The position numbers and the translations under genes were made by a program. From assembly GCF_044324875.1 (NCBI RefSeq), contig NZ_CP172188.1: 64,000 bases of DNA; one strand, 5' to 3'. Under the pieces are notes generated by a model. It ran no database searches and was not told the DNA's origin. It saw only the letters and a program-made list of their open reading frames with translations. The DNA comes from Escherichia coli. Its GTDB lineage: Bacteria; Pseudomonadota; Gammaproteobacteria; Enterobacterales; Enterobacteriaceae. Below are positions 13,526 through 63,375 of this stretch, piece by piece; within the stretch, counting starts at the first letter, position 1, and the number at the start of each line of letters is the position of its first letter.

Positions 13526-13526
13526 C

Positions 13527-14718: not shown

Positions 14719-14753
14719 TTGTTAAGTGGGCTTTTTGTATGTGTTTTACTATA

Positions 14754-15162: not shown

Positions 15163-15465
15163 TTAGTATTTGTGAGGGTCGAGATACAAGTCCTCGGCCT
15201 TTCCGTTAACCCACTTAAAAATTAACCTATATTGCTTATTCACCCTTACTGATGAATAGCCATTTAGCTTCCCTGACAGTTCCTCATACCGATTACCTGG
15301 TGGTGATCTTAAATCCTTACAGGTAGTTGCGGCATTGATAATGTCCAACTTCCGTGACAATGTCATATGAATATCAGGAGGTATCTTTCTATGTGGTGTT
15401 GAAAATTCAAAAAAATCATCAAGCCACGCATCCCTGAAATCCTTTATGTTAATTTTTTTGGTCAT
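15163..15465 (-). CDS. higB: HigB-like killer toxin, second TA pair
   Basis: ...DLRSPPGNRYEELSGKLNGYSSVRVNKQYRLIFKWVNGKAEDLYLDPHKY resembles the plasmid-killer (HigB) family; lies immediately upstream of the antitoxin. Confidence 0.65.
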   Translation of the reverse strand: MTKKINIKDFRDAWLDDFFEFSTPHRKIPPDIHMTLSRKLDIINAATTCKDLRSPPGNRYEELSGKLNGYSSVRVNKQYRLIFKWVNGKAEDLYLDPHKY

Positions 15466-15627
15466 TAGTCATTTGATCCTCCGTGATGATTACCGAATGC
15501 CATAACTATAGCGCACTGTTGCACTGTGCGCAAGTGCATTTTATGAATTCCCCCTCCTTCATCCAAAATCACAATCTCCCGAAAATCTTCCTTTCGATAC
15601 CTGACAGATCGACCTTTGAGGATGCTT

Positions 15628-17183: not shown

Positions 17184-17186
17184 TAA

Positions 17187-18167
17187 GTGGCCCAGGAGTT
17201 ACAACAATATTTTCTACAGTCAGTGCTCATTAACGATAACAAAGTGCCACGAGACTGGATTTTTACCGCAGTATATGTAGAAAAAACCAGCCTCAAAGCC
17301 CCTTTGCTAAAACTGGAAATTCATGACGCTACCGGCACCGTAATTGATGACTGGAAAGCCAAATACGGTGCATCGCTGGTGGCTGAAATGGGCGATCCAA
17401 ACGGTAATGCAGGCACTTTTAAAACAGATTTCTTTGTTACGTCTGCAATGCTGGCTGGTGATGTTGTTACCGTTATTGCTGTCAGTGAAGACGTGCGCAG
17501 GTTTAAGATCCCCTCCCCGCGCACAAATTTACATACCAACAAAACACCAGACGCTATATTCAAGGCATATTCCGGCAAGCTTAAAATTACCAGCAGCGTG
17601 CTAAAACGCGCAGTTACATATCATCTGAATGCCGGTGACAAACCGTCAAAAATGCTTTCGGAGATAGCGCGAGACAAAGGTGCATTATGTTGGGTATGCC
17701 GGGGGGAATTTAACTTTTACACCCTGGATGATCTGATGAAGCAAACGCCATCATTTACCTACGAGGGGAATAACCCTAAAGCAGAATACACTTTGTCCAA
17801 AATGCGCCTACTCCAACAGGAACATGCGACAACAGCAAAGAATCAATATCGTTTTGTTGGGTATTCCATGACCGATGGCTACGTCGAATATGGCGATAGC
17901 TCACTCCCAGTGCGTTATATATCCGACTCTGATATGGAAACTCTTCGCAATATGCAGCTGTCTCTCGTCCCCAAAATGGATATAGAAGTCGCAGGCAATC
18001 CGGATATAAAACCGGGAATGGTAATAGAGATTATCGTATACCGCTATGACCAGGAAAACCGCATTGATGAATCAATGCCCCGCAAGCTGATAGTAAAAAA
18101 TGTTGCGCACTTTGAAGACCGCGTAGGCTACACAACACGAATGATATTAGGAGTGCCGAACAAATGA
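17187..18167 (+). CDS. baseplate / tail-associated protein (unknown)
   Basis: 326 aa; stop overlaps the start of the spike-like gene. Confidence 0.4.
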   Translation: MAQELQQYFLQSVLINDNKVPRDWIFTAVYVEKTSLKAPLLKLEIHDATGTVIDDWKAKYGASLVAEMGDPNGNAGTFKTDFFVTSAMLAGDVVTVIAVSEDVRRFKIPSPRTNLHTNKTPDAIFKAYSGKLKITSSVLKRAVTYHLNAGDKPSKMLSEIARDKGALCWVCRGEFNFYTLDDLMKQTPSFTYEGNNPKAEYTLSKMRLLQQEHATTAKNQYRFVGYSMTDGYVEYGDSSLPVRYISDSDMETLRNMQLSLVPKMDIEVAGNPDIKPGMVIEIIVYRYDQENRIDESMPRKLIVKNVAHFEDRVGYTTRMILGVPNK

Positions 18168-18817
18168 AGCGTAGAGCGCAAATTGTTGGAACTGTGCACC
18201 CGGCAGGGCTTATGCGTGCTCAGGTCCGTGTTTTACCAGACTGGAATGGCGTTCCTGATGACGATCTACCCTGGGCAGAATACCTGTTACCCATAGGTAA
18301 CGCGTTTGTACCTACAGTAAAAGGCGACCTGGTATGGGTAGAGTTTCCTTATCTGGATGTTAATGGTCGAATTGATACCAGACGCCCAATGATAGTTGGC
18401 GCAGCTCAGGATGCGCCTGGCGGAGTACCAAACGTCGCGCCGGAGGCGTCAGGCAATGGTAGCGGCTGGACGCCACCAGAAGTAGACGGAGCGCCTCCCC
18501 GCCCGCAATTTTCGGCGACAAAAGATTTCGTGATTCACCGCAACAATGTGCTCGAAGTGCGAACGGCTGGCGGTGGATATGAAATAGCGAATACGGCAGC
18601 AGGCTCAAGGATTGGAATGAATGAATCAGGGCAGATATACATCATTGGTCCGGCTGATGTAGTAGTGAATGCGGGAGGGAGTGTTAACGTCAAATCAGCC
18701 GATAACATCAGCGTTAATGGCAAAAACATTACTGTGACAGCCGACGAAAATATTGATTTCAAGGCTGGAGGCACCTTCCAGGCTATCGCAAGCAACTTTG
18801 ATTTCAAGAAGGGATAG
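18164..18817 (+). CDS. baseplate central spike protein (gpV-like)
   Basis: N-terminal region VRVLPDWNGVPDDDLPWAEYLLPIG... and a Gly-rich C-terminal repeat-like region (ISVNGKNITVTADENIDFKAGG) resembling gpV-type spikes. Confidence 0.5.
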   Translation: MKRRAQIVGTVHPAGLMRAQVRVLPDWNGVPDDDLPWAEYLLPIGNAFVPTVKGDLVWVEFPYLDVNGRIDTRRPMIVGAAQDAPGGVPNVAPEASGNGSGWTPPEVDGAPPRPQFSATKDFVIHRNNVLEVRTAGGGYEIANTAAGSRIGMNESGQIYIIGPADVVVNAGGSVNVKSADNISVNGKNITVTADENIDFKAGGTFQAIASNFDFKKG

Positions 18818-18826
18818 AAAACACAT

Positions 18827-18870
18827 CCAATTGTGTTAGATAATTGAACAGAATTTTCTAACACAATTGG
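18827..18870. promoter_or_regulatory. perfect 14-bp inverted repeat carrying the dispersed motif in both orientations, upstream of rdgC
   Basis: CCAATTGTGTTAGA (18827-18840) ... TCTAACACAATTGG (18857-18870), 16-bp spacer. Confidence 0.45.
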
Positions 18871-18876
18871 TGAAAC

Positions 18877-19782
18877 ATGAGATCAGTCGCTTTCAAAAAC
18901 ATCTTCATCTATCGTCTTTCACGTGAAGTTAACTGGAGTGCCGCAGAAGTATCCGATGCTCTTAGCAAATTCGTGTTTACTCCTTGCGGTTCTCAGGACA
19001 CAGCTAAAGTCGGTTGGACACCTGTTCTTGGTGACAACCTCACCCATGAATACCAGGGTTTTCTGCTAATACAGCATAAGCGAGAAGAAAAAATTCTCCC
19101 CTCGCAGGTGCTCAAGGAAGAGTTGCAGAAAAAAGTCCTGAAACTCGAAGAAGAGCAAGCCCGCAAGCTGAAGAAAACGGAAAGAGACAGTCTTAAAGAT
19201 GAAGTCCTGCATTCCCTTTTGCCTCGCGCGTTCACGAGAAAATCACTCGCCAAAATCCTGATCGACCGCAGCAACCATCTGGTATTCGTTGAGGCAAGCA
19301 GCGCCAAAAAGGCAGAGGACCAGCTGGCTTTATTGCGAAAATCGCTCGGCAGCCTGCCTGTCATTCCATTCACACCACGCGAACCGCTGGAAATTACAAT
19401 GACCGAGTGGTTTAAAAACGGCTTCCCTGCCGGATTTACAGCAGGTGAAGACGCCACATTAAAGGGTCTGCTCGATAATGGTGGTGCCGTTCGCTGCAAC
19501 AAAGTTGATCTACAGTCCGACGAGATTATGTCTCACATTGAGGCGGGGAAAGTAGCTACGACCGTTGCAATTAACTGGATGGAACGCGCGTCGTTCAGAG
19601 TCAACGATGATATGAGTATCAAAGCCCTGACATTCTGTGATGATCTCTATGACCAGAACGACGATATCGACCGGGAGGATGTAGCACAACGATTTGATGC
19701 TGATTTCGTGCTCTTTACGGGCGAATTATCTGCACTGTTTAACGCGCTGGTGGAGGCCATTGGCGGTGAAGCAGAACGATAA
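18877..19782 (+). CDS. rdgC: recombination-associated protein RdgC homologue
   Basis: 301 aa; near-colinear similarity to E. coli RdgC as I recall it ([35 protein letters not shown]..., [26 protein letters not shown]). Confidence 0.85.
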
Positions 19783-27996: not shown

Positions 27997-28237
27997 GTTG
28001 CAGCAAATTCTGCGACCGGGTTTAGCAGCCTGAATGTACATGCGGACAACCGCAGATATCCGATATTGCGGTATTTTTGTGTCCGTAAAACCATGTTACG
28101 CCCGAATTATGGTGGGGCGTGATGGGGAGGCTTCGGCCTGCTGGTTTCATGTACGCCAGTCTGCTAACCCCGTCACGTCCTGCCACCCGTTTAGCAGCGG
28201 GTAGCAGGTTGTTAAACCTGTACATGAGGCCGTAACT
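27997..28237 (+). ncRNA. structured leader with an embedded c4-like antisense regulator and two target sites (module B)
   Basis: Elements TTAGCAG/GTACATG at 28022-28042 and 28191-28226 (the second abuts the GAGG Shine-Dalgarno) are complementary to CATGTAC/CTGCTAA at 28148-28167; the complementarity is kept by compensatory changes in modules C and D. Confidence 0.5.
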
Positions 28238-38325: not shown

Positions 38326-38566
38326 AGTTACGGCCTCATGTACAGGTTTAACAACCTGCTACCCGCTGTCAAACAGGTGGCAGGGCGTGACAGGGTTGAC
38401 AGACTGGCGTACATGAAACCAGCAGGCCGAAGCCTCCCCATCACGCCCCACCATAATTCGGGCGTAACGTGGTTTACGGACACAAAAATACCGCAATATC
38501 GGAAATCTGCGGATGTCCGCATGTACATTCAGGCTGTCAAACCTGGTCGCAGAATTTGCTACGACG
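38326..38566 (-). ncRNA. structured leader with a c4-like antisense regulator (module C)
   Basis: Minus-strand elements TTGACAG/GTACATG (targets) and CATGTAC/CTGTCAA (antisense) in the same arrangement as module B. Confidence 0.5.
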
Positions 38567-47925: not shown

Positions 47926-48372
47926 ATGGCTGAAAATTTAAAGGCAAGAGATGGTAACCGCCTGTATAAGGCGCAATTGCTTTCCTACTATTATTCACGC
48001 CGCGCTGAGTCGGCGATCGGCAAAGGTGCGCGTTTTGTTATCTCTAAGGCGTATTGGTGCAAATCTAGTCTGGTAACTGCTAATGGTGCAGGAGGCTGGA
48101 ATATAGCGGACATTCCACTCGATTTTAAATTGAGTAACGCTCAACAGTTTGCTGTGTCCGATCTGATATTGTCCAGTGTGGATGGGATTATCACTATCAA
48201 TGCAGCCTTCCCTCAAGAAAGAATGCCGGATAACACGCCTTACGACTTTAACACGCTTGTGCTTGTGGATGCTGAGGAACAGGCTTTTGCTGTGCTTTGC
48301 ACCCAGCAAGACACCCTCTATAAAGGTAAACGTTACAGTATTCTCATGACAATCGAGCAAGTTGAGGGTTGA
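47926..48372 (+). CDS. hypothetical tail protein
   Basis: 148 aa; stop overlaps the tail-fibre start. Confidence 0.35.
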   Translation: MAENLKARDGNRLYKAQLLSYYYSRRAESAIGKGARFVISKAYWCKSSLVTANGAGGWNIADIPLDFKLSNAQQFAVSDLILSSVDGIITINAAFPQERMPDNTPYDFNTLVLVDAEEQAFAVLCTQQDTLYKGKRYSILMTIEQVEG

Positions 48373-51257
48373 TTATGGGTGCTGATAAAACGAACAACAT
48401 AATGACACTATCCTCTGGTGTCTCACAGCCGTTGCTTGCTGATGTTCAATATTTCGAACTCTATAGTAGTTCGGCTCTTAACAGAAAACTTAAAAATATT
48501 GTTTTGCCGGGCTTTTACTGTGGATTTGAACCGGTTCCCGGCACAGGGTTGAGTGTCCGTATAACTTCTGAAAACTCAGAAGGTAAAGGGGCTGCTTCAG
48601 TAGATGTAAATAATGTTCAGATATCCGTTCAGCAAATAGAAGATGTGACTGTCTCGGTAAAGGCAGGGGCTACCAACATTATTGTGCTGGAAGCCAATTT
48701 TGAACATGGTGTAAAAACGACACAGGTAGATAGCGCATCTTCTGTCAGTGCTGCAAGAATTTACGCGCGTACGGACAATACTATTGGGCAGAATCAAATT
48801 GAATTATGTCGAGTTATCGTGCCTAGCGGCGCAACGGCTGTGACTAAAGAAATGATTGTGCTTAAATACCGGGTTAACCGTGCTGTTGGTGTCGAATTCT
48901 CTAATGAAATAAGCAGTACAGAAGAAAGAAAAGCGGCTACACCTCTGGCTGTCAAAACTCTCCATGATTTGGTTGATACAAAAGCCCCGATCAACAGCCC
49001 GAATCTGACAGGAACGCCAACAACACCAACAGCGCCACAGGGGACTAATAATACCCAGATCGCAAGCACGGCTTTCGTTATGGCCGCGATTGCCGCACTT
49101 GTAGATTCGTCACCTGATGCACTTAACACTCTGAACGAACTGGCCGCCGCGCTTGGTAATGATCCGAACTTTTCCGCGACAGTGACTCGCCTGATTGGAG
49201 AAAAAGTTGCCAAAGATGGCGACACCATGACAGGTAAACTTAATCTGCCGCAGACCTCTGCATTCGGCATCAATACCAACAACAGACTGGGGGGGAACTC
49301 TCTGACGCTGGGCGATCACGATACCGGAATTAAACAGGAAGGAGACGGCGTATTGTCCGTGTTCGCCAACGGCCAGCGTGTGTTCCTTTTCACGGAAAGA
49401 AGTATTACCTCATTAAAAGAGCTTCTGATAGGGGATGCACGTTATAGCACCGGTGGTGATGTGTATGGCAGTCAGTGGGGAGACGGTTGGTTGAGTTCCT
49501 GGTTAAGTGCTCGCTTTGCAGAGTGTGCCAACGCCAGCCATAACCACCCTTGGAGCCAGATTACCGACGTACCAGCAGCCAGCCTCACTCAGAGCGGCAT
49601 TGTACAACTTAGTAGTGCCATCAACAGCACTTCTGAAACATTAGCTGCAACTCCAAAAGCGGTTAAAGCTGCATACGATCTAGCAGCCGGAAAGGCACCA
49701 TCCAGTCATACACACCCCTGGAATCAGATCACTGGTGTGCCAACAGCTTCATTGACAGCGAAAGGCATCACTCAGCTCAGTAGTGCTACTAACAGCACGT
49801 CTGAAGTGCTGGCCGCCACACCAAAAGCTGTCAAGGCTGCATATGACCTGGCTAACGGGAAGTATACAGCCCAGGATGCAACCACGACACAAAAAGGGAT
49901 AGTTCAGCTCAGTAGCGACACCAACAGCACTTCTGAAACATTAGCTGCAACTCCAAAAGCGGTTAAAGCTGCATACGATCTAGCAGCCGGAAAGGCACCA
50001 TCCAGTCATACACACCCCTGGAATCAGATCACTGGTGTGCCAACAGCTTCATTGACAGCGAAAGGCATCACTCAGCTCAGTAGTGCTACTAACAGCACGT
50101 CTGAAGTGCTGGCCGCTACACCGAAAGCGGTTAAAGCTGCATACGATCTAGCAGCCGGAAAGGCACCATCCAATCATATACATCCCTGGAATCAGATCAC
50201 TGGTGTGCCAACAGCTTCATTGACAGCGAAAGGCATCACTCAGCTCAGTAGTGCCACTAACAGCACGTCTGAAGTGCTGGCCGCTACACCGAAAGCGGTT
50301 AAAGCTGCATACGATCTAGCAGCCGGAAAGGCACCATCCAGTCATACACACCCCTGGAATCAGATCACTGGTGTGCCAACAGCTTCATTGACAGCGAAAG
50401 GCATCACTCAGCTCAGTAGTGCTACTAACAGCACGTCTGAAGTGCTGGCCGCTACACCGAAAGCGGTTAAAGCTGCATACGATCTAGCAGCCGGAAAGGC
50501 ACCATCCAATCATATACATCCCTGGAATCAGATCACTGGTGTGCCAACAGCTTCATTGACAGCGAAAGGCATCACTCAGCTCAGTAGTGCCACTAACAGC
50601 ACGTCTGAAGTGCTGGCCGCTACACCGAAAGCGGTTAAAGCTGCATACGATCTAGCAGCCGGAAAGGCACCATCCAATCATATACATCCCTGGAATCAGA
50701 TCACTGGTGTGCCAACAGCTTCATTGACAGCGAAAGGCATCACTCAGCTCAGTAGTGCCACTAACAGCACGTCTGAAGTGCTGGCCGCTACACCGAAAGC
50801 TGTCAAGGCTGCATACGATCTGGCAAACGGAAAACAACCGGCAGATGCCACGCTCACTGCTCTGGCAGGACTTGCCACTGCAGCAGATCGGTTGCCTTAT
50901 TTTACCGGAGCAGACCGCGCAGCGCTGACAACCCTTACAGCTATTGGTCGCGCTATTATCGCTAAGGGCAGTATAAAAGATGTCCTCAATTACCTTGGTT
51001 TAGGAGAAGGCTCGGCGCTACCCGTTGGTGTGCCTGTTCCATGGCCCACCGCCACACCGCCAGCAGGCTGGTTAAAGTGCGACGGGCGCGCCTTTACAAA
51101 AGAACAATATCCTGTTCTGGCCAGAGTCTACCCGACCCTCCGTCTTCCCGATTTACGCGGTGAGTTTATCCGTGGATGGGACGACGGGCGAAAAGTTGAT
51201 ACAGGGCGCGATTGCTTTCACGGCAAGGGGTACAAGTTTTTCTCATTACGGAGGTAA
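48369..51257 (+). CDS. tail fibre protein with variable C-terminus encoded in the invertible segment
   Basis: 962 aa; about seven tandem ~60-aa repeats containing ATPKAVKAAYDLA...H.HPW.QITGVP (classic fibre repeat); the last ~85 aa lie inside the invertible segment. Confidence 0.7.
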   Translation: MIMGADKTNNIMTLSSGVSQPLLADVQYFELYSSSALNRKLKNIVLPGFYCGFEPVPGTGLSVRITSENSEGKGAASVDVNNVQISVQQIEDVTVSVKAGATNIIVLEANFEHGVKTTQVDSASSVSAARIYARTDNTIGQNQIELCRVIVPSGATAVTKEMIVLKYRVNRAVGVEFSNEISSTEERKAATPLAVKTLHDLVDTKAPINSPNLTGTPTTPTAPQGTNNTQIASTAFVMAAIAALVDSSPDALNTLNELAAALGNDPNFSATVTRLIGEKVAKDGDTMTGKLNLPQTSAFGINTNNRLGGNSLTLGDHDTGIKQEGDGVLSVFANGQRVFLFTERSITSLKELLIGDARYSTGGDVYGSQWGDGWLSSWLSARFAECANASHNHPWSQITDVPAASLTQSGIVQLSSAINSTSETLAATPKAVKAAYDLAAGKAPSSHTHPWNQITGVPTASLTAKGITQLSSATNSTSEVLAATPKAVKAAYDLANGKYTAQDATTTQKGIVQLSSDTNSTSETLAATPKAVKAAYDLAAGKAPSSHTHPWNQITGVPTASLTAKGITQLSSATNSTSEVLAATPKAVKAAYDLAAGKAPSNHIHPWNQITGVPTASLTAKGITQLSSATNSTSEVLAATPKAVKAAYDLAAGKAPSSHTHPWNQITGVPTASLTAKGITQLSSATNSTSEVLAATPKAVKAAYDLAAGKAPSNHIHPWNQITGVPTASLTAKGITQLSSATNSTSEVLAATPKAVKAAYDLAAGKAPSNHIHPWNQITGVPTASLTAKGITQLSSATNSTSEVLAATPKAVKAAYDLANGKQPADATLTALAGLATAADRLPYFTGADRAALTTLTAIGRAIIAKGSIKDVLNYLGLGEGSALPVGVPVPWPTATPPAGWLKCDGRAFTKEQYPVLARVYPTLRLPDLRGEFIRGWDDGRKVDTGRDCFHGKGYKFFSLRR
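49540..50830 (+). repeat. tandem ~180-bp in-frame repeats in the tail-fibre gene
   Basis: Near-identical units with few substitutions (for example SSHTHPW versus SNHIHPW). Confidence 0.8.
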
Positions 51258-53036
51258 TTTCGACATTGGGTCTGGTTATTCAATCAATAACTACGACCAA
51301 TAGTTGTTTCTAACAACCAAGATTTTCCCGACCTTCATGAGGGCCTTTAACGAGGTGATGGGGTTAACATGTAACCATTCGTCCTGGTAACATTGTTTAA
51401 TTATATGGTATGCAGGCTATAAACGTTGGTTTAGGAGAAGCGGCGCTATGCGTTGGTGTGCCTGTTCAGTGGCCCCCGCCACACCGCCATTGCAGGCTTA
51501 ATTAAATTGTGAGGGCGCGTTTACAAAAGAACAATATCAGTTCTGGCCAGAAAACCCGACCCTCCGCTTCCCGATTTAGCGGTGCGATATCCGTGGATCA
51601 CTATGACGAGACGAAAGGTTGATACACGGGCGTGCCTCTTTGGAGTTTCGCCCTTGGGACTATCGTATCCGGTTTTGATGCGCCGATGCATACCGGAGAT
51701 TTCAGGTTACGTGGTCGGCTGCCACACAAACGGATGGTGACGCATTTAACCTGATCACCTGGGGGTATAAATGGCAAAAAGTGGATATTTGATGCATCCC
51801 AACCGGTGCACAAAGATATGACTGGCGGACTTACCACCAGCAAAACAGCCTGCCACAATATGGGATTTAACTATATCGTGAAGGCGGCGTATACCGTTAC
51901 TGAACGGCATAGAGCCGCAGTGGCGCTGGCCAGCTGCAACGCCAGAAACCTTGTGATATCCAGGCGTTCAGCTCGTCGATATAATCCAGCACGGCGGGCA
52001 GTTTTGCCGTTTCTTCCAGTTTCAGACTGCGACCTGCCCGCCGTTTGGGTTGATAGGTCGACGGCTTCACGCCTGGATCCACCCGGCACTGGCGTTGCAG
52101 TTGGCAAGTCTCCAGCTCTGCGGCTCTATGCCGGCTCAGTATCACGCCGCCCACGATTACCGTTCCAGGTATCCCATGGTGTGGCAGGCTGTTTTGTGGT
52201 GGTGTCCGCCGGTAATCACCCGGTTGAGGTGCATCAGAACGGGGTTCCCGTTTTCCGTTTATACCGTCTCCCGCGGTGATTAGGGTTACATGCGTCCCAA
52301 ATCCGTTCAGTGTGGCAGTCCGAAACCACGTAACCCGATATCCTCCGGTATGCATTATCATCACGAACCGGAGTACGATAGTCCCAAGGGCGAGATACTG
52401 AAAGTAGCGCACGCCCGGTATCAACCTTTCGTCCGTCATATCCACGGATAAACTCACCGCGTAAATCGGGAAGACGGATCGGTTAGACTCTGGCCAGAAC
52501 AGGATATTGTTCTTTTGTAAACGCGCCCTCACAATGTAACCAGCCTGCTACGGCGGTGTGACGGTGATACCCTTCGCATACAGGCTTCTGATAGAGGTCA
52601 GAATAGTAGCCTGCATACCATTGTCTGACATTACCACGATGTTACGAGGATCGCTGAATGTTGTCCCGTCCGGCATTTTGAAGGCCCTCACGAAGGTCTG
52701 TAATGGAATCTTCATTGTTGAATCCCATGCCGACTATCCCCGAGGTTCCCGTAGTGTCCTGGTTATAATAATCCAGCATTGCTGTTCTTAACAGCGTTGC
52801 CCCTTGTGCGGACAGCAACTTACGTCCTGTATCAACTTTGCGCCCGTCGTCCCATCCACGGATAAACTCACCGCGTAAATCGGGAAGACGGAGGGTCGGG
52901 TAGGCTCTGGCCAGAACAGGATATTGTTCTTTTGTAAAGGCGCGCCCGTCGCACTTTAACCAGCCTGCTGGCGGTGTGGCGGTGGGCCACGGAACAGGCA
53001 CACCAACGGGTAGCGCCGAGCCTTCTCCTAAACCAA
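50995..53036. other. invertible tail-fibre segment (Cin/Gin-type) with ~210-bp inverted repeats plus two degenerate internal repeat copies
   Basis: IR-L 50995-51205 and IR-R 52826-53036 are near-identical inverted copies beginning with TTGGTTTAGGAGAAGG; degenerate copies at ~51425-51640 (direct) and ~52440-52570 (inverted, partial); invertase gene starts 67 bp beyond IR-R. Confidence 0.6.
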
Positions 53037-53102
53037 CGTTTATCTCTCAAATCCTCCCCACATTATCTCAGTACTTTAACCACTCAAAAGGGAGTATTTT
53101 TA

Positions 53103-53675
53103 ATGCTGATTGGCTACATACGTGTGTCAACAAATGACCAAAACACAGATTTGCAACGCAATGCATTAATGTGCGCAGGATGTGAACAGATTTTTGAGGA
53201 CAAAATGAGCGGAACCAAGTCGGAACGACCAGGCCTGAAACGCGCTTTAAAGTGCCTTAAAAGAGGGGATACATTGGTGGTCTGGAAGCTGGATCGGTTG
53301 GGTAGAAGAATGAAACACCTCATTGCTCTCACAGAAGAGCTACGCGCAAAAGGTGTCAATTTTCGCAGTCTGACGGATTCAATCGATACCAGCACTCCGA
53401 TGGGAAGGTTCTTTTTTCATATGATGGGTGCACTGGCAGAAATGGAGCGTGAACTGATAGTTGAGCGCACGCTGGCAGGACTGGCTGCTGCGCGATCACA
53501 AGGAAGAGTTGGAGGACGTCGCCCGAAACTGACGAAGGAGCAGCATGAGCAGATCGCAAGATTGCTCCAGAAAGGGTATGACAGAAAGCGGCTGGCAATT
53601 ATCTATGATATTGGACTGTCAACGATCTACCGCTATCACCCTGTTGGGACTGTCATAACGCAACCTGAAATGTAA
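53103..53675 (+). CDS. serine DNA invertase (Hin/Gin/Cin/Pin family)
   Basis: MLIGYIRVSTNDQNTDLQ..., RPGLKRAL, LVVWKLDRLGR, C-terminal HTH; 190 aa. Confidence 0.85.
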   Translation: MLIGYIRVSTNDQNTDLQRNALMCAGCEQIFEDKMSGTKSERPGLKRALKCLKRGDTLVVWKLDRLGRRMKHLIALTEELRAKGVNFRSLTDSIDTSTPMGRFFFHMMGALAEMERELIVERTLAGLAAARSQGRVGGRRPKLTKEQHEQIARLLQKGYDRKRLAIIYDIGLSTIYRYHPVGTVITQPEM

Positions 53676-53891
53676 TTCTTTTTCAAATAATGAAACGCCG
53701 CGTGGATGCCATTTATCGCACAAGATAGAGTGCATTTATCGCGCGGCGCATCATCATTTGTTGATATGCGAATGTATCCAATAAGCATATGTCTCCCTTG
53801 TATGCTAAGGATACGATCCTAGAAGATGTCCTGTAAGGAAATAACAAACTGACTAAGTTAGTGGCGCATTAGATGTTATTTCTGGAGGGGT

Positions 53892-54218
53892 ATGTTTGCA
53901 GATTATGAAAATCTGGCTGTAGTAGTCATAACATCCCTACTAAGTGGAACCGGCGTATTCCTTCTCGGAGTTAGAGACGGGCGCATTTCTGCGTCCCTGC
54001 TCAATCTTGCGAGTGAATTGTTTACTGCGGTAACAGCCGGGCTTGCGGGGTATGGGGTGGCGGTTAGCCAAGAATGGCCTGAAGGTATCATTTTCTGCGT
54101 TGTTCTGATTGCCAGTAACAACGGTAGTGAAATTTTACAGGGCTTGAAGTCCAGAGCTAGTAACGTCTTGAATCTCTTAAGCGTAATAGCGAATGGGGGA
54201 AAAGGTGGAGAGAAATAA
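53892..54218 (+). CDS. holin-like small membrane protein (LydA-position)
   Basis: 108 aa with ~3 hydrophobic segments; first gene after the invertase, as in the P1 lydA position. Confidence 0.4.
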   Translation: MFADYENLAVVVITSLLSGTGVFLLGVRDGRISASLLNLASELFTAVTAGLAGYGVAVSQEWPEGIIFCVVLIASNNGSEILQGLKSRASNVLNLLSVIANGGKGGEK

Positions 54219-54664
54219 TGGGTAACTTTGGAAATTATTTCATTTTTATCATGGCATTTGTTGCCATCATTGACCGTTTCATTTTTCGTCGCAAGAGTGT
54301 TGAGATTTTGAGTATTGGTGACGCTGTAGTGAAAGAATCCGCTATAGCATTTCCTGTTTCGCTACGTGTTAAGCGAAGCTGGGTCAGCAATGCTCAAATC
54401 GAATATTGGTTGCAAGACCTGAAAAATCCATCTGTGGTTATTTCAGGGAAAACGCGACCAGTTGACGCCTCAAAACGCGGTGAGAGAGAAGAGTATTTGC
54501 TCATCGATACGAAATATCTTGAGCCAACGAAGTGGGATCTGAAAGTCACATTGACTAACGGTAACTGCCGACTGAATCCGCTTTATCGCATTTTCCCTAT
54601 CAATGACTGCATAGAGCGCCAGTTTACGATCGAAAAGCGTAAAGGAGACTGGGATGTCAAATAA
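54218..54664 (+). CDS. membrane-anchored protein (antiholin / LydB-position, tentative)
   Basis: 148 aa; N-terminal hydrophobic segment NYFIFIMAFVAIIDRFIF; ATGA coupling. Confidence 0.35.
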   Translation: MGNFGNYFIFIMAFVAIIDRFIFRRKSVEILSIGDAVVKESAIAFPVSLRVKRSWVSNAQIEYWLQDLKNPSVVISGKTRPVDASKRGEREEYLLIDTKYLEPTKWDLKVTLTNGNCRLNPLYRIFPINDCIERQFTIEKRKGDWDVK

Positions 54665-55274
54665 GAATAATTATGTTCTTCTTAATTATGATGAGTTAAA
54701 CGAAAAGGGGCTGGCAAAACTCGTCAAAGAAATCAGCAAAGGTGGTTACAAGATAGCGAGGGTGATCCCTGCAAGTAATGGCAGGAAGAAAGATGGGATC
54801 ATGACGCGCACGTTTACCCTTATTGGTATTGATGAACAGACAATGGAAGTTCAGGTTAACGATACCGGTGATATATCTGGGATCAAACTGAATGGTAAAA
54901 CAGTACCGTTCAAGCCAGTAAAAACAATGTCGGCTTTGGGGCAATCTCTTGCGGCTTTATTTAATCGCGGAGCAACTTCTTTCCAGAAGTCATTAGCTCG
55001 AAAACTTGCTCGTGCAGCAAAAAATATTGATGACGGAAATAAGAAGCGGCAGGGAGTTAAATCTAACGCTCAGAAATTAGCTGAAGCGAAAGAATCACGT
55101 GATGCACTCCGTGAAGATATCGCTAATGCTAACGACAAACTGTCTAAACTCCAGAGCAAGTCAGACAAAGTAATACAAGATACGGGTAACGTTAAAGCTG
55201 CCTTGTCTCAGGAAGTAGCTAAGACACGTGCTCTTAAAGAAGAAATCGCGCGCCTGGAGGATGAGCATGATTAA
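54654..55274 (+). CDS. hypothetical protein (Hdf-position, tentative)
   Basis: 206 aa; coiled-coil C-terminus; assignment by synteny with the P1 darA operon as I recall it. Confidence 0.3.
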   Translation: MSNKNNYVLLNYDELNEKGLAKLVKEISKGGYKIARVIPASNGRKKDGIMTRTFTLIGIDEQTMEVQVNDTGDISGIKLNGKTVPFKPVKTMSALGQSLAALFNRGATSFQKSLARKLARAAKNIDDGNKKRQGVKSNAQKLAEAKESRDALREDIANANDKLSKLQSKSDKVIQDTGNVKAALSQEVAKTRALKEEIARLEDEHD

Positions 55275-57192
55275 CAATCCTTTACGAATTAATATTCAGT
55301 CTACTTTTGCTGATACGATCCCCGGCTATATGCCAAGTCGCTGGTCTTCAGAAGAATTAAGCGAAGATGACCTGATTTTTGAGGCGGCGACCTTAGAAGA
55401 TATTGAGCTTGCCTATATGGGCAATGAAATTCTGGTTGTGTCTGACGAAGCTATGTTTGAGTCCATAACTACAACCAGAATTCGGTTAGCTCAAACAATG
55501 CGAGCTTTCGTCCGTGCGCTGAATCGTGGCCTGAATGGTACGAATATTATGGCAGGGACTGATGAAGCTGGGACCGATGAAAATGGACGTAATTGTATTG
55601 GAGGTGCGATTATCGGTCGTGTACGTCGGGTAGCTAATATCCCTGTTTTGACCGCGCAGATACCGCTTACTGACGGGCAGAGTACAAGCATAATTTTCCA
55701 CTCTCCAACAGCTGACGGGGCAAAAATAAAGAGTAACGACGAGCTTGTTGCATTTCAGTTTTTACTTAATAAACGTAACGTAACTCACGTTGTCGCCCCG
55801 ATTGGTGGGAGAGATGTTTCTTTAAGCCAGGTATGCCAGGCGCTATCTAATTTGATTGAGCGTAACAGCGAAAAATTTAAGAAAGCAAAAGAGCGCCAGG
55901 ACAAAATGAAGGCAGATATTGAGAGTTATCTCAATGAAGCAGATAAACTGGCAGAAGAACGGTCAATAATGATTGATCAGGTGGAAGTTGCGCAACGTGG
56001 GCTGACTGAAAAGCGTGCTGCTCTTACGGAGATGCAAAAAAAACTTGATGCCCAGAAAGCCATCAACGAGGAATTACAAGCAAAACGCGATAAATTGTTG
56101 TCTGCTAAAGGTGAAAAAACGAAAGAACGAGCGTTTAGTGACCAGCTGCGACATGTAAAACATAATCTTGCCATTGACGGAAAAACAGTGCTGGATAATG
56201 GCGCTGAAGTTAATTATGTCACGTCCGGCAGTGATAATTTCGTTACGATAGTAGCACCTGAAGGTAAATTCAGTATTGATGCCAGTGCTGTCAAAGGAGG
56301 CAGTTTGGCAGATGCTGCAACTAAATTACTTAAAGCCTACCGAGAGCATAACGCAGATAAATATAAAGTTGATGTGTTACCAGGCCAGCAGGAAGACCCC
56401 GAACCACCACAGACAGACCCCGAGACGAACCCAGTATCACAACCAGAGAGCCAGGATGTAGGTAAATACCACTATGCACTTCAATCTCGCCCGGCTGGTG
56501 TTGGTGCTGTGCCGGATGGAAATAAAGCCGTGCTTGATCGTCCTGACCAGGCTGATCAGTATTACGAATATGCTCGTCACGGTATCATTACGTATGACCG
56601 TAAACTGACAGATGAAGAAGTCAGCCAGTACGAGTTGCTCTATCTTCCTGATGAAGATGAGCTGAAAGATTTTGCAGGCCAATTGGTTGTGTCCAGCATG
56701 TCGAAACATATTGATGGCTATGTAGACCTGTTTGGCAGTGACCTGAAAACATTCAAGGCGCAAGTGAAAATTCTTTTCCGCAAAGCGTTTCCAAATGTGG
56801 CGTATCCACTTGGTGATGGGGAGAACCTTTTCATTATGGACGTGTATAACGCCCTTCAAAATCATTCAAGCGAAGTAAAAACAGAGCATGTGGTTGAGCC
56901 GGAATCACAACCACAACCAGCACCAGAACAGGAGCCGGAGCCAGAAGAAGTTGGTGAATCAGCAAGTGAAGCTGATCAGGAAGCAGATAAAGCGCTGGAG
57001 TACCTGAAATCCGTGCCGGAGCAGTTTACATCCCGCGATCTGACGGTCATCAGTGCTGAACTTGATCATGTGCAGGAAGCAGCGAACGCTCTAATCAGTG
57101 CAGGTCGATACGACGAGAACGAAGCCACTGTGGGTGCAGCAGTTGACTACCTGATCAATATTCTGGCTGAAATTCAGCAGGGAGGTGTTTAA
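55267..57192 (+). CDS. large protein in the DarA position (possible antirestriction / capsid-associated protein)
   Basis: ~641 aa; assignment by synteny and size only (P1 DarA is ~639 aa as I recall it); start overlaps the upstream stop. Confidence 0.3.
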   Translation: MINNPLRINIQSTFADTIPGYMPSRWSSEELSEDDLIFEAATLEDIELAYMGNEILVVSDEAMFESITTTRIRLAQTMRAFVRALNRGLNGTNIMAGTDEAGTDENGRNCIGGAIIGRVRRVANIPVLTAQIPLTDGQSTSIIFHSPTADGAKIKSNDELVAFQFLLNKRNVTHVVAPIGGRDVSLSQVCQALSNLIERNSEKFKKAKERQDKMKADIESYLNEADKLAEERSIMIDQVEVAQRGLTEKRAALTEMQKKLDAQKAINEELQAKRDKLLSAKGEKTKERAFSDQLRHVKHNLAIDGKTVLDNGAEVNYVTSGSDNFVTIVAPEGKFSIDASAVKGGSLADAATKLLKAYREHNADKYKVDVLPGQQEDPEPPQTDPETNPVSQPESQDVGKYHYALQSRPAGVGAVPDGNKAVLDRPDQADQYYEYARHGIITYDRKLTDEEVSQYELLYLPDEDELKDFAGQLVVSSMSKHIDGYVDLFGSDLKTFKAQVKILFRKAFPNVAYPLGDGENLFIMDVYNALQNHSSEVKTEHVVEPESQPQPAPEQEPEPEEVGESASEADQEADKALEYLKSVPEQFTSRDLTVISAELDHVQEAANALISAGRYDENEATVGAAVDYLINILAEIQQGGV

Positions 57193-57560
57193 TGACCATC
57201 TCTGTTTTAGACCGCCTGAAATTAGGTAAAGAGCTATCAGATCTAATGCAGGCGCAGAAAACTGCGCCAGTATTGCAACGCGTCACCATTGGTAAGCAGA
57301 TTGTTGATGTGATGCTGAAATTGGGCCTGGGGACTGCCGCGCAACCGGCAGCGGAACCGCAACAACAGGCTGATCCTGTTGTAGATGAAGTCCCTAAGAT
57401 AGTGACTGACTTCCTGGGCGGTGTGTTCACAAAGTCCACACAAATGGAATTTATTGATGCGCTGCGTGGGATCTCAAACTATGTTGGCGAGTTCCTTACG
57501 TTGGAGCAGGCTAAAGAGCAGACCATAAGCTGGGTGAAAGCTAACGGTTATGCCGGGTAA
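57192..57560 (+). CDS. hypothetical protein (DdrA-position, tentative)
   Basis: 122 aa; start overlaps the upstream stop. Confidence 0.3.
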   Translation: MTISVLDRLKLGKELSDLMQAQKTAPVLQRVTIGKQIVDVMLKLGLGTAAQPAAEPQQQADPVVDEVPKIVTDFLGGVFTKSTQMEFIDALRGISNYVGEFLTLEQAKEQTISWVKANGYAG

Positions 57561-57642
57561 TCAAAAGGGGCTGAAATGCCCCTTTCACTTATCTGTTCTC
57601 ACATAAATCACACACTTTTTACACTCACAGCTTTCTCTATAG

Positions 57643-59040
57643 TTGGAGTGTATTTTGAACAAATCAGTTACTTCTGCGCTTTCCGAGGCCGCAGATATTA
57701 ACAGCGTCATTGCTCTGGTTTCTTCATTAGAGAGGAAAGAAACACGCCTGGGGCGAAGTAGCTACGTAGTCACCAGCAAAGGTGCAGAGGTAAAGACGGC
57801 TTTTAAGGTCGTTGATGCCAGCAGTCTGATCATTTCGAACAACCTTGACGGTACGATTAACCCGGCCTTCCCGGAAGAACTCCAACCACGAGATCGTACC
57901 CGGCTATCCAGCAAACTCCAGGTTAACCGTATTGCCTCCAATTTACGCCCGGCACAATTAACGGATTCCGGTATGAGCAGCCACGGAGCGCCGATAGTTG
58001 GTCCGGACAACGTTGTTGAATCCGGCAACGGAAGGAGTATGGGTATCTGGCGTGCCTATGAGCAAGGACAGGCGGATGAGTATCGCCAGTACCTGATCGA
58101 CCATGCGAAAGAGTTTGGTCTGAATCCTGACGAAATTTCGCAAATGTCTATGCCTGTACTGGTGCGAGAAAGACTCACAGATGTAGACCGCGCTCAATTT
58201 GCCCGCGATTCAAACATTAGTGATCTGCAAGAGATGGCAGCAAGTGAAAAAGCGTATGCGGATGCGCAATTTCTCACTGAGAGCGTCATGGCGCTATTTA
58301 ATCCTTCAGATGATGGAAATCTGCTGGCGCGGTCCAATGATGCGTTTATTCGTGCGTTTTTGCGCGAAATTGGCGATACAGCGACGGCAGGCTTGCTTAC
58401 TGCCGATGGGCGTCCCACGAAACAGCTTATCGATCGCATCCAGAATGCAATTTTTGCCAAAGCGTACAAGGATGAAAGGCTTGTTCGGCTGGTGTCGGAA
58501 GAGCCAGATCCGGAAATGCGTAATATCCTGACCGCATTAAATACGGCAGCCAGCGATTTTGCGCAAATGCAGTCGCTGTCTGGCGACGCTCACCATGACG
58601 CAGTAACAGGCTTAGTGGACGGTATAGAGCAGGTTAATGGCCTGGATACACAGGCGATAGCAGCACTCCAGGAAGCAATTAATCTTGTTCGTGAAGCCAA
58701 AGACAACGGTCAGGCCGTTGAAGAAGTGATCGCCCAAAGGGGGTTATTCGGCGACAGTACACCGGAAGCTGAGGCATTGGCGTTATTCATCGTAGCAAAT
58801 AATCGCAGTGCGAAGCGTATGGGGGCAGCATTCAAAAAAATGGCGCAAAAAATCAACGACGAGCTGACTCATAAACAACAGGCATTGGGCGATATGTTCG
58901 GCGGTGGCGATGTTGATCTGCGTCGTATTTTGTCTGCTGTATCTGATGAAATTGAGGGTGAATTTGGCGAAGGGAAAGGTCTGAACTTTGCTATGTTTGA
59001 AAATTCTACAGATCTAAATAATTGCCGTACGGAAAACTAA
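57643..59040 (+). CDS. hypothetical protein, possibly virion-associated
   Basis: 465 aa; TTG start (alternative TTG at 57655); segment HGAPIVGPDNVVESGNGRSMGI is faintly ParB/Srx-like. Confidence 0.35.
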   Translation: MECILNKSVTSALSEAADINSVIALVSSLERKETRLGRSSYVVTSKGAEVKTAFKVVDASSLIISNNLDGTINPAFPEELQPRDRTRLSSKLQVNRIASNLRPAQLTDSGMSSHGAPIVGPDNVVESGNGRSMGIWRAYEQGQADEYRQYLIDHAKEFGLNPDEISQMSMPVLVRERLTDVDRAQFARDSNISDLQEMAASEKAYADAQFLTESVMALFNPSDDGNLLARSNDAFIRAFLREIGDTATAGLLTADGRPTKQLIDRIQNAIFAKAYKDERLVRLVSEEPDPEMRNILTALNTAASDFAQMQSLSGDAHHDAVTGLVDGIEQVNGLDTQAIAALQEAINLVREAKDNGQAVEEVIAQRGLFGDSTPEAEALALFIVANNRSAKRMGAAFKKMAQKINDELTHKQQALGDMFGGGDVDLRRILSAVSDEIEGEFGEGKGLNFAMFENSTDLNNCRTEN

Positions 59041-59104
59041 ACCAACCGCTGAAATCACATACTGATTATGCTGCCGCAAAACTGGAAACAATTTGCGGTG
59101 ATTC

Positions 59105-60787
59105 ATGGCAACGAAAGACAAAAACAAAGGCTTTCTGTCAGCATTGAAGAAAGCCTTCAACGGTGGTGATGTTACGCCCGCCGATCCGGTCGTTTTTACG
59201 AGCGGGCATAGTGTCGTTGCTCGTTCCGGCCTGTCTGCTTTACGTCCAGGTATACTGGGGAGCAACAGCGATGGCATGACGAGTGCAGCAGATTCAATTT
59301 CTTTATCCGCTGAACTGCCCGGCGAGCGCCTGCAAAAGTACAACATCCTGGAAACGATGGCTAAAAGCCCGACTATCTCGACGGCTTTAAATATTCACAT
59401 TGCACATGCGCTTGCGCCTTCAAAAAAAACCGGACAAGCATTCATCCTTTCGCCAAAGGATGGTTCCGATGCTGAGGCAGTAAGTAGATGTGAAGAGTTA
59501 ACTGCTGATTTGGGGGCGATGATTAATGACGGACTTCCTTCATGGGCCATGATTATGGCGATCTTTGGGGTGTCTTATGTCCGCCCTTATGCTGAACAGG
59601 GCAGGGGGATAACAGGCATTGAGTCCAGTTATTACACTCTGCCACACTTCGTCCAGGAGTTTTATCGTGGTAGCCAGCTGGTAGGTTTCAGTGGTGATTA
59701 CATCCTGGATACGCATAGTTTGCGCAGAGTAATAACCGAACCGTGGAATCTGGTTTCCATGAAAAATCCCTATTGGACGCCACAGCATAAAGTTATTCCG
59801 GTTAGCTACGGCACAAAAGGGTACTCACTGTTAAGTGATCAGGCTGATAAGCCGTTAATGGAGACGCAGAATTACGGGACTTCATTCCTGGAATACAGCT
59901 ATGAACCTTACCTTAATTTATGTGCTTCGCTCGCCGCGCTGAAATCAACGCGAAATAATGCAGCCAAAATTGACCGCCTGATTGCTCTTACGACGAACAC
60001 ACTGGACCCGGTTAATGCGGCGAACTATACGCGTGGCGTCAGCCAGGCATTGAAGCGTCATAGTGACTTGGTGGCGCAAAGGTCGATTAATGCCAACGCT
60101 ATTCCGACTGTGCTTAACCATCTGATACCTGTTATGGGAGACGGGAAGAACGGCATCACCATTGATACGCAATCCATACCCGCAGATATCAGTGGTATCG
60201 AAGACGTTATGTTTCACCTCCGGCAGCTTGCTGCAAGCCTCGGCATTGACGCAACAATGCTTGGCTGGGCTGATCAGATGAGCGGAGGGCTTGGAGAAGG
60301 CGGCTGGCAGCAAACTGCTATCCAGGCTGCATTGCGTGCGAACTGGATCAGACAGGCCGCCCAGCGAACTATTTATCGGCTTCTGGACATTCACCTCGCT
60401 TATAAATACGGCAAGGTTTACACCGAAACAAACCGCCCTTATGACGTGCAATTCAACTCAATGAACACTGCTATCCAGGAAGAGGAAAACCGAGAACTGG
60501 ATGCACGCGCCAACTTTGTTGCTGTCATCTCCCAAATTATGGACCAGATCCAGAATAACCCGAAACTGGCTGGTAGCGACGCGTTTATGCGTTATCTGTT
60601 CACTGAGCAGTTGCACATCGACGATGACACTCTCAACACCATGATCAAAGAGTTTAAGGCGAATGAATCAGAGCAAAACAACGAGCATGGTATGTACGAA
60701 TCCGCGCCGTTGTCGTCCGGTGACGATCCGGAAAACTGGACGCCAGAACAGTTAATAAACTTTGCAAAATTTGTGATGAGCAATTAA
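59105..60787 (+). CDS. portal-like protein (tentative)
   Basis: 560 aa immediately upstream of a protease/scaffold-like gene; size and position only. Confidence 0.4.
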   Translation: MATKDKNKGFLSALKKAFNGGDVTPADPVVFTSGHSVVARSGLSALRPGILGSNSDGMTSAADSISLSAELPGERLQKYNILETMAKSPTISTALNIHIAHALAPSKKTGQAFILSPKDGSDAEAVSRCEELTADLGAMINDGLPSWAMIMAIFGVSYVRPYAEQGRGITGIESSYYTLPHFVQEFYRGSQLVGFSGDYILDTHSLRRVITEPWNLVSMKNPYWTPQHKVIPVSYGTKGYSLLSDQADKPLMETQNYGTSFLEYSYEPYLNLCASLAALKSTRNNAAKIDRLIALTTNTLDPVNAANYTRGVSQALKRHSDLVAQRSINANAIPTVLNHLIPVMGDGKNGITIDTQSIPADISGIEDVMFHLRQLAASLGIDATMLGWADQMSGGLGEGGWQQTAIQAALRANWIRQAAQRTIYRLLDIHLAYKYGKVYTETNRPYDVQFNSMNTAIQEEENRELDARANFVAVISQIMDQIQNNPKLAGSDAFMRYLFTEQLHIDDDTLNTMIKEFKANESEQNNEHGMYESAPLSSGDDPENWTPEQLINFAKFVMSN

Positions 60788-60800: not shown

Positions 60801-61799
60801 ATGCAATCACTGAATACTGTTACGGATCGCTTCTCCCTGGTAGAGAAAATCCGCAAACACACACCGCAGAACAACCGAAATTACGTCATTCAGTCGGTAC
60901 GAGACACATTCAACTCGCCAGAAACAAAAGAGCGTATCGCGCTGGGTGAGATGTATGGTTATTACGGTCATGGTCGCCGGGCGATGCACTATAACAAAAC
61001 GAAAAGCCTGAACTTGCCGGAAGTCTCTGTTGTGATGGTAGATGGGAAGCCTGTTGTATTGGAGAACGTGCCATCCAACAGGACTATCGACATTTCGATT
61101 GACGACAACGGCATTGTTACCCATACGCAGGAAATACTGGATACAGACACCGGGCGTATTGTTCAGGGGATGATAAATTCTGGCGCCGGTGGTTGGTCAT
61201 GGGCTACATCTGGTCCAGACTCATCGGTATCCCTGGTAAAGTCTTTCCACGGCTTTGATTACGTAACTGTGCCTAACTATATCAGCCTCGACAAGAAAAG
61301 CCTGATGCTTGAATCAGCAGAAGAGCGCGATGCGGCTATTCATGCAGCACTTATCGAACAAGGTTTTACCGATAACGCTGCCACGGATCTGGTTCACCAC
61401 TTTTCAGCGATGAAAAATCAGCAAGCCATGCTCGAGTCTGCACATCGTGAAGCCCTGGAATCAGAATTAATGCTCCTTGAAGCGGAAAATATGCAACTTC
61501 GCGACAAATTACGAAACCAGGCTGCAATGATGGAAAGCCAGGGCGAAGATGCGAAGAAATGCCGCCGTATTTTGCGTGATGCTATCCAGGAAATGCCTGT
61601 TTTTATCAGTGCAGAACAACGCCGGGCGCTCTGCCGTATGCAGTCTGAAGATGATGCTCGCATAGTGGCTGCGATGCTTGAATCTCTGGGGGCAAATGCG
61701 ACTTATGGCTTACCGATATCAGGCAAGAAAGAGGCGGAGTTATCACCGAAGGAGAACAAAAATACCACACCGTTACTCTTCGTTTCGCGACGGGCGTAA
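60801..61799 (+). CDS. prohead protease / scaffold-like protein (tentative)
   Basis: 332 aa; GEMYGYYGHG motif near the N-terminus and a helical C-terminal half. Confidence 0.4.
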   Translation: MQSLNTVTDRFSLVEKIRKHTPQNNRNYVIQSVRDTFNSPETKERIALGEMYGYYGHGRRAMHYNKTKSLNLPEVSVVMVDGKPVVLENVPSNRTIDISIDDNGIVTHTQEILDTDTGRIVQGMINSGAGGWSWATSGPDSSVSLVKSFHGFDYVTVPNYISLDKKSLMLESAEERDAAIHAALIEQGFTDNAATDLVHHFSAMKNQQAMLESAHREALESELMLLEAENMQLRDKLRNQAAMMESQGEDAKKCRRILRDAIQEMPVFISAEQRRALCRMQSEDDARIVAAMLESLGANATYGLPISGKKEAELSPKENKNTTPLLFVSRRA

Positions 61800-63135: not shown

Positions 63136-63375
63136 GTCGTAGCAAATTCTGCGACCAGGTTTGACAGCCTGAATGTTAGTGCGGACAACCGCAGATTTCC
63201 GATATTGCGGTATTTTTGTGTCCGTAAACCGCGTTACGCCCGAATTATGGTGGGGCGTGATGGGGAGGCTTCGGCCTGCTGGTTTCACTAACGCCAGTCT
63301 GTCAACCCTGTCACGTCCTGCCACCTGTTTGACAGCGGGTAGCAGGTTGTTAAACCTGTTAGTGAGGCCGTAACT
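63136..63375 (+). ncRNA. structured leader with a c4-like antisense regulator (module D)
   Basis: TTGACAG/GTTAGTG at 63161-63181 and 63329-63364; complementary CACTAAC/CTGTCAA at 63286-63305. Confidence 0.5.

Follow-up and report, generated by a model that had tools for sequence, protein, structure and literature searches.

Gene content of the region and its relationship to phages P1 and D6

We analysed a stretch of 64,000 nucleotides (nt) from Escherichia coli (contig NZ_CP172188.1 of assembly GCF_044324875.1; hereafter "the window"), in which six open reading frames (ORFs) between positions 53892 and 59040 follow a gene for a serine invertase, as reported in a first-pass annotation made from the sequence alone (Table 1). 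On the strength of gene sizes and order, that annotation had proposed that the ORFs correspond to the lydA-lydB-hdf-darA-ddrA-ddrB genes of bacteriophage P1, and had suggested a BLASTP comparison as a check. When the six proteins were compared directly with the P1 reference record, similarity was detectable for every one of them: all matches were significant (E-values from 1e-21 to 0) and followed the P1 order. Curated family models and the recovery of chains of PDB entry 9ukm pointed to the same identities. Since highly significant homologues were found for all six ORFs, we regard them as real genes and not as chance ORFs.

We are highly confident that the stretch is the orthologue, in the lineage of Escherichia phage D6, of the P1 darA operon, which would be expressed late and serve both in lysis timing and in antirestriction by proteins packaged in the capsid. 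What is established for the block itself is its homology, its gene order and domain content, the purifying selection acting on it and the recurrence of a promoter-like motif; its capsid packaging and antirestriction activity would be expected by analogy with experiments on P1. The opposite view, that genes unrelated to lydA-ddrB merely happen to resemble P1 in the sizes and order of their ORFs, could draw on the sixth ORF, whose size is unlike that in P1 (465 versus 995 amino acids), but once tested it found nothing in its favour. It is refuted by the six significant in-order matches, by family models scoring over their thresholds and by the recovery of the P1 DarA and Hdf chains, and we give it practically no chance.

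Table 1. Features of the window, with two D6 genes for comparison (coordinates are those of the window unless D6 is named)
Feature	Position	Strand	Description
AAATCACA(A/C/T)-type motif sites	10202, 15566, 26049, 29856, 29911, 40169, 47867, 53839, 57605, 59052	+	Upstream of late/structural operons
Serine invertase	53103..53675	+	Pfam Resolvase and HTH_7; 72% identical to Cin of P1 and of D6; co-directional with lydA
cin relic	53753..53788	-	12 codons (MLIGYIRISTND) of the 5' end of the ancestral divergent cin; D6 homology resumes exactly there
Candidate late promoter of the lydA-ddrA unit	53839..53859	+	AAATAACAA-ACTGAC-TAAGTT (box, 6-nt spacer, -10-like hexamer); ends 32 nt before the lydA ATG
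lydA	53892..54218	+	108-aa holin; 43% identity to P1 LydA, E 9e-23; 100% to D6 LydA
lydB	54218..54664	+	148-aa holin antagonist; 34% identity to P1 LydB, E 1e-28
hdf	54654..55274	+	206-aa DarA_N paralogue of DarA with C-terminal coiled-coil helix; 40% identity to P1 Hdf, E 2e-30
darA	55267..57192	+	641-aa internal head/antirestriction protein; 39% identity to P1 DarA over 621 aa, E 5e-142
ddrA	57192..57560	+	122 aa; 33% identity to P1 DdrA, E 1.6e-21
Hairpin	57564..57585	+	AAAGGGGC-UGAAAU-GCCCCUUU, GC-rich, 4 nt past the ddrA stop; candidate intrinsic terminator or RNA-stability element
Candidate late promoter of ddrB	57605..57625	+	AAATCACAC-ACTTTT-TACACT; exact AAATCACA box, 22.0 bits; kept in D6 at 27747
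ddrB, short form	57655..59040	+	461 aa; 64% identity to P1 DdrB residues 2-442, E 0
Candidate late promoter of prt-pro	59052..59072	+	AAATCACAT-ACTGAT-TATGCT; position matches P1 LPpro before prt
pro	60801..61799	+	42% identity to P1 prohead protease, E 2.5e-84
D6 darB	12283-19119 (D6)
D6 ulx	11812-12246 (D6)

The first-pass guess was right, and the finding is an ordinary one: the block is widespread and its identification was already known from D6. At the DNA level the region is 96.3% identical to D6 over 5.1 kb, the six proteins share 93-100% identity with their D6 counterparts (BLASTP), and the D6 record annotates a holin (lydA), a holin antagonist (lydB), hdf, darA, ddrA and ddrB as "similar to P1". 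D6 orf30-orf25 (NC_050154 / MF356679) has the six genes in the same order, the same short DdrB and the same 94-nt ddrA-ddrB spacer with a hairpin and a promoter box. Colinearity with the D6 reverse strand extends over the entire window (93-98% identity), which identifies the molecule as a D6-like P1-type phage-plasmid, and the portal, Pro and other P1-like morphogenesis genes are present in it. The codon differences from D6 are mostly synonymous (synonymous/non-synonymous: ddrB 67/18, ddrA 18/7, darA 28/20, prt 8/0), indicating that the genes are under purifying selection.

The divergence from D6 is distributed as a mosaic, with 0-5 differing codons in each of lydA, lydB and hdf, 7-20% of the codons differing in darA, ddrA and ddrB, and a near-identical prt; this suggests recombination breakpoints inside the operon. 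D6 also carries orf24 (DUF4145) and orf23 (~1.1 kb) between ddrB and prt; these are not in the window, where ddrB is followed directly by prt-pro and the portal homologue Prt is 50% identical to that of P1. The ddrB-prt region (59000-59104) is a variable hotspot, occupied by a 64-nt spacer in the window and by an XRE-family regulator in other related plasmids. The joint lies within the last ~10 codons of ddrB, so that the C-terminus of DdrB (the last ~9 residues) differs from that in D6.

About 100 plasmids of approximately 90 kb from E. coli, Salmonella and other hosts share 80% or more of the block. The closest across the queried stretch of invertase and operon (window 52900-59200) are pF374-2 (NZ_OY754373.1) and NZ_CP172219.1 (99.9% identity), followed by pKY1497_2, which matches in a single piece at 99.2%. 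D6-like plasmid prophages have been described as carrying P1-related LydA/LydB lysis and antirestriction modules (PMC6799933). Beyond correct annotation the result has little significance; it places the window among D6-like P1-type phage-plasmids, which are common in E. coli and Salmonella. Since RefSeq labels most genes of the block in close relatives "hypothetical protein" or "head protein", the gene-by-gene assignment should nevertheless be useful for curation.

Like the P1 darA operon, which has the late promoter LPdar, the block preserves the gene order, the overlaps among the first five genes and their sizes to within 3 amino acids (P1: LydA 109, LydB 147, Hdf 203, DarA 639 and DdrA 121). 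The parallel in sizes seen in the first pass thus stands for these five genes and fails for the sixth, P1 DdrB being more than twice as long (995 amino acids). The claimed coupling of starts and stops likewise applies to four junctions, at which lydB, hdf, darA and ddrA overlap the preceding stop by 1, 11, 8 and 1 nt, respectively; it does not extend to ddrB, which begins 94 nt after ddrA, whereas the same junction in P1 measures 12 nt and has no such spacer with hairpin and promoter-like box. All six genes end with TAA, and a GGAG-type Shine-Dalgarno sequence precedes each of the first five starts (lydA to ddrA). For darA, the count of 641 residues starts at the ATG chosen in D6 (the ORF taken mechanically from GTG 55228 encodes 654). 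For ddrB, we took TTG 57655, the start annotated in D6 and RefSeq, which a GGAG precedes by 7 nt; the alternative first TTG at 57643 would give 465 residues. The DarA_N, DarA_C and DdrB-ParB domains are conserved, and Pro, portal, DarB and Ulx occur in the lineage, although protein identity to P1 is only 33-64%.

The lysis pair LydA and LydB

The first-pass description of a multi-pass membrane protein of 108 residues followed by a membrane-anchored protein of 148 residues agrees with the hydropathy analysis, in which LydA has three hydrophobic segments (residues 5-27, 39-59 and 60-82) and LydB a single N-terminal one (residues 1-25). These patterns are as in P1 LydA and LydB, annotated in the P1 record as a holin and as the LydA antagonist. 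LydA matched phrog_1527 (holin; 8e-39), and LydB matched phrog_1898 (lysis determining protein; 6e-69) and scored 87.5 bits on Pfam PF16084 LydB (cutoff 28). Both features of the P1 lysis pair are therefore found here, a LydA-family membrane protein and a LydB translationally coupled to it. By tblastn, no homologues of lydC, lydD, lydE, lyz or hxr were found; Lyz and LydC/LydD/LydE are lacking in the window and in D6 alike. D6 has instead a TIGR02594/lysozyme-like gene, orf16, located behind a late-promoter-like box and falling outside the window.

Hdf and DarA, the putative internal head proteins

DarA scored 1154 bits (cutoff 350) on the NCBIfam equivalog NF052326, "antirestriction phage head protein DarA", as well as 136.6 bits on Pfam DarA_N (PF18788) and 68.2 bits on DarA_C (PF18789), and the name of its PHROG family is "released from the phage upon host infection". 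Hdf scored 65 bits on DarA_N and matched phrog_1620 (Hdf-like antirestriction; 7e-76). By sequence, both proteins recovered the solved P1 chains, DarA 9ukm_I (E 2.4e-124) and Hdf 9ukm_H (E 3.6e-25), and both align with their P1 counterparts from end to end. Conservation is uneven along DarA: the DarA_N/hexon-binding region is 59% identical to P1, whereas the coiled-coil helices reach only 22-23%. A glutamate of the window protein aligns with E68 of P1 DarA, just before the first modelled residue (...MFE|SITTTR versus ...LLE|AISSTR in P1, the bar marking the boundary).

In the cryo-electron microscopy structure of P1, 55 DarA-Hdf pairs occupy the inner capsid surface at penton-hexon junctions, where they touch the DNA, and they are gone after ejection; DarA residues 1-69 are missing from the structure, consistent with cleavage by the Pro protease (PMC12810830). 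Hdf, DarA, DdrA, DdrB, DarB and Ulx were detected in the head by analysis of the P1 virion proteome, the table of which lists Hdf and DarA as head-size determinants (PMC9024508). Deletion of darA or hdf in P1 yields particles without any other Dar protein. Protection by the P1 Dar proteins acts in cis on the packaged DNA and reaches bacteriophage exclusion (BREX) besides type I restriction-modification (R-M), and the inter-dependencies of the proteins for incorporation into the virion complicate the reading of dar mutant phenotypes (PMC12707154).

These observations could also be read as indicating that in this lineage the Hdf/DarA block serves primarily in capsid morphogenesis or stabilisation, with antirestriction minor, lost or left to DarB alone. 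P1 Hdf and DarA are labelled head-size determinants and reinforce the capsid at every penton-hexon junction, the mutant phenotypes are hard to interpret for the reason just given (PMC12707154), and the best-conserved part of the window DarA is precisely the capsid-binding DarA_N. Nonetheless, P1 DarA performs both jobs, so that a morphogenetic role is compatible with packaged antirestriction, and morphogenesis alone hardly explains why homologues of DdrA, DdrB, DarB and Ulx are kept in the lineage under purifying selection. We consider a primarily morphogenetic block rather unlikely, though it deserves to be weighed, and prefer the assignment of Hdf and DarA to a dual-purpose Dar module.

DdrA and the short form of DdrB

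DdrA matched phrog_1855 (DdrA-like; 4.8e-50) and no model of Pfam or NCBIfam. DdrB carries a DdrB-type ParB/Srx domain, scoring 144.3 bits (cutoff 27.6) on Pfam PF18763 ddrB-ParB, and its VESGNGR motif is identical in P1; no relative of solved structure was detectable for it by sequence. This ParB-like half is the best-conserved Dar component, with 64% identity to P1 versus 33-43% for the others. With residues 443-995 of P1 DdrB as query, tblastn gave no match to the window, to the complete D6 genome or to the examined 34-kb stretch of pKY1497_2. The C-terminal region of the P1 protein contains a zincin-like metallopeptidase domain, which Iyer et al. proposed to autoprocess DdrB (PMC5512222). 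Since D6 lacks this half too, the peptidase is a feature of the P1 protein and not of the Dar system.

An antisense ORF within ddrB (58230-58625, minus strand) gave a 62% tblastn match to P1 iddB. It lacks a start codon at the position of that in P1, and its translation is of low complexity, rich in Ser, Ala and Arg; on these grounds we regard the match as a by-product of ddrB conservation and not as a gene.

A holin-like membrane protein and a ParB-like putative nuclease/NTPase domain are parts also seen in defence systems, which raises the question of whether the block could be a plasmid-borne host defence or abortive-infection system and not a phage counter-defence. PADLOC returned no family matches, the sole similarity being one at the coiled-coil level to ZorA (E 6e-4). 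Moreover, the block sits among late morphogenesis genes with late-promoter-like boxes, and its P1 homologues are virion proteins. We regard a host defence system as extremely improbable and retain the assignment to a putatively virion-borne Dar module.

A putative late-promoter motif and three proposed transcription units

The octamer AAATCACA occurs 12 times in the window, compared with 3.4 +/- 1.7 expected, and none of 100 shuffled sequences reached this number. Ten of the 12 copies lie on the late-gene strand, and nine of these ten are intergenic, located 38-230 nt upstream of ORFs mapping to D6 mat, gene 7, upfC, gene 23, pmgB, R, ddrB and prt. Each late-strand intergenic box is followed, six bases further on, by a -10-like hexamer. 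With a weight matrix built from eight other AAATCACA sites in the window, the lydA site being left out, AAATAACAA upstream of lydA was the best non-training match (17.4 bits, rank 9 of 127,960 positions; the next scored 13.1), and the 70 nt upstream of lydA that include it are identical in D6. Applied to D6, this matrix additionally picks out the lysozyme-like orf16 and darB, the latter with the AAATAACA variant found at lydA. Four of the motif positions correspond to LPmat, LPs, LPpro and LPdar annotated in P1. The annotated P1 late promoters have the box AAGTKACTT and a 4-nt spacer, whereas the window sites are of the AAATCACA(A/C/T) type with a spacer 2 nt longer (6 nt). The motif is probably the Lpa-dependent late promoter of the lineage. 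An lpa gene is annotated in D6. A full-text literature search for the motif returned no relevant paper.

A second box upstream of lydA, AARTTAGT (AAGTTAGTG at 53855), was also considered. It was not enriched (6 matches versus 4.4 expected; 30 of 100 shuffles reached 6) and was set aside, since it does no more than overlap the -10-like hexamer of the stronger AAATAACAA site.

The 131-nt ddrA-ddrB region, which contains the hairpin of Table 1, folds at -37.1 kcal/mol (z = -4.66), and none of 200 shuffles was as stable. The hairpin is kept in pKY1497_2 and, with a single change in the stem, in D6. It was missed by generic scans for sigma-70 promoters and terminators, which performed no better than on shuffled sequences, and Rfam at gathering thresholds gave no match within 53.7-59.1 kb. 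The positions of the motif and the hairpin would delimit three late units, lydA-lydB-hdf-darA-ddrA, ddrB and prt-pro. The single operon downstream of the invertase envisaged in the first pass would therefore hold for lydA-ddrA, while the block as a whole probably comprises two transcription units, ddrB being the separate one.

A more ambitious interpretation is that, compared with P1, the Dar module of the D6 lineage has been reorganised, with a DdrB reduced to the ParB-like half, free of the peptidase, insulated by the hairpin and driven by its own late promoter of distinct box and spacing. We put this forward only as a tentative and somewhat doubtful idea. If it were true, the peptidase half would be dispensable for DdrB packaging and function, and the dosage of DdrB would be independent of DarA and Hdf. 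The short DdrB, its putative separate promoter, the late motif and the swapped invertase are modest refinements, some of which the publication on the D6 genome may already contain; the separately promoted short DdrB and the late-promoter motif offer modest leads on regulation in the P1 family and on the loading of Dar proteins into the capsid.

Working model of the operon and points that weigh against it

By analogy with P1, the block could operate as follows; the steps concerning the activator, lysis, the capsid, Pro cleavage and ejection are taken over from experiments on that phage. Late in lytic growth, an Lpa-type activator would switch on the promoter ~50 nt upstream of lydA. The LydA holin would then build up in the inner membrane, its triggering being delayed by LydB. 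Hdf and DarA would pair via helical domains and attach to the inner face of the capsid at penton-hexon junctions, where they would help to set the head size and provide a platform for the loading of DdrA, DarB, Ulx and DdrB. The Pro protease, encoded just downstream, would remove ~70 N-terminal residues of DarA. DdrB, in this lineage a stand-alone ParB-like protein, would be expressed from its own late promoter downstream of the terminator-like hairpin. Finally, the Dar proteins would exit the capsid with the DNA and, acting in cis, shield it from BREX and type I restriction once inside the new host. The element very probably carries capsid-packaged antirestriction proteins that would help such phage-plasmids to get past the barriers raised between strains by type I restriction and BREX. 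A comparable strategy is known from the internal proteins of T4 (IPI*), which are anti-restriction proteins loaded into the procapsid, cut by the protease of the prohead and expelled along with the genome (PMC12810830, PMC9024508). No sequence relationship between these and the Dar proteins was detected, and the T4 proteins are named as acting against R-M systems, whereas Dar protects in cis against type I systems and BREX (PMC12707154).

Several points weigh against this model. For Hdf, DarA and DdrA, packaging, ejection and antirestriction would have to be extrapolated across 33-43% identity. LydA scored 18 bits on Pfam PF16083, under the gathering cutoff of 28.4, the sole sub-threshold result among the models. 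A matrix built from the six annotated late promoters of P1 gave no match upstream of lydA; promoter function of the lydA site is proposed by analogy with P1 LPdar. The handling of DdrB may differ from that in P1, the half with the proposed processing peptidase being absent. No homologues of DarB or Ulx, both needed by the full P1 system, were found within the window, and the lpa gene also lies outside it, so that a complete system is only predicted for this molecule. In D6 and pKY1497_2, DarB (a methylase/helicase of ~2,250 residues) and Ulx, 43% and 46% identical to their P1 counterparts, are encoded a few kb beyond the point at which the window ends; by colinearity, darB and ulx of the present element should sit past its 3' end.

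Finally, the tail-fibre variable region upstream of the invertase looks degenerate, and this copy may therefore lack infectious particles. Taken further, the genes would be intact members of a defective prophage-plasmid making no infectious virions, and the operon would be conserved cargo that is currently unused; defective D6-like variants have indeed been documented (PMC6799933). The six ORFs, prt and pro are nevertheless intact, their divergence from D6 is mostly synonymous, the promoter boxes and Shine-Dalgarno sites are conserved, and the tail-fibre damage could stem from the sequencing or assembly of a region of mixed orientation. A defective element appears improbable to us, more so than a primarily morphogenetic role of Hdf and DarA, and we favour a functional, late-expressed lysis and Dar block.

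The neighbouring invertase and tail-fibre segment

In both P1 and D6, cin and lydA diverge; cin is directed into the invertible segment and has cixL at its 3' end. This arrangement is not kept in the window, where the invertase has the opposite orientation. Perfect 22-nt inverted crossover-like sites, ATAAACGTTGGTTTAGGAGAAG, at 51419-51440 and 53022-53043 enclose a segment of 1.6 kb whose end lies ~60 nt before the invertase ATG, and a 217-nt inverted repeat spans 50992-51208 and 52823-53039. This layout is that of Mu gin and e14 pin. The invertase module shares ~89% identity with tail-fibre/invertase modules of chromosomal prophages in many E. coli; it is a foreign replacement of the Mu/e14 type (window 51419-53788), at the edge of which a remnant of the ancestral cin persists (Table 1).

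The S ORF (48369-51257) leaves the homology to S of pF374-2 at 51209 and stops 15 codons further on. The tail-fibre assembly gene is represented by fragment matches in two frames (51912-52346), without ~58 N-terminal codons, and several partial tail-fibre C-terminal cassettes are present in the variable region (51209-52640). This degeneracy could reflect real decay or an assembly artefact of an invertible region in mixed orientation. In the constant part of S, positions 49596-50833 comprise ~7 tandem copies of a 168-nt (56-residue) unit (...APSSHTHPWNQITGVPTASLTAKGITQLSSATNSTSEVLAATPKAVKAAYDLAAGK...), the copy number of which differs from those in pF374-2 and pKY1497_2.

C4 antisense RNAs elsewhere in the window

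The Rfam family RF01695 (C4 antisense RNA) matched the window four times with 69-77 bits, at 4367-4454, 28105-28190, 38373-38458 (minus strand) and 63243-63328. Rfam also gave a match in the window to the Hfq-binding RNA isrK, and 4244-4322 was listed alongside the C4 copies. Three of the four C4 copies adjoin a1/b1 target elements (RF03163), which suggests that multiple immI-like antirepressor control modules are present in one element.

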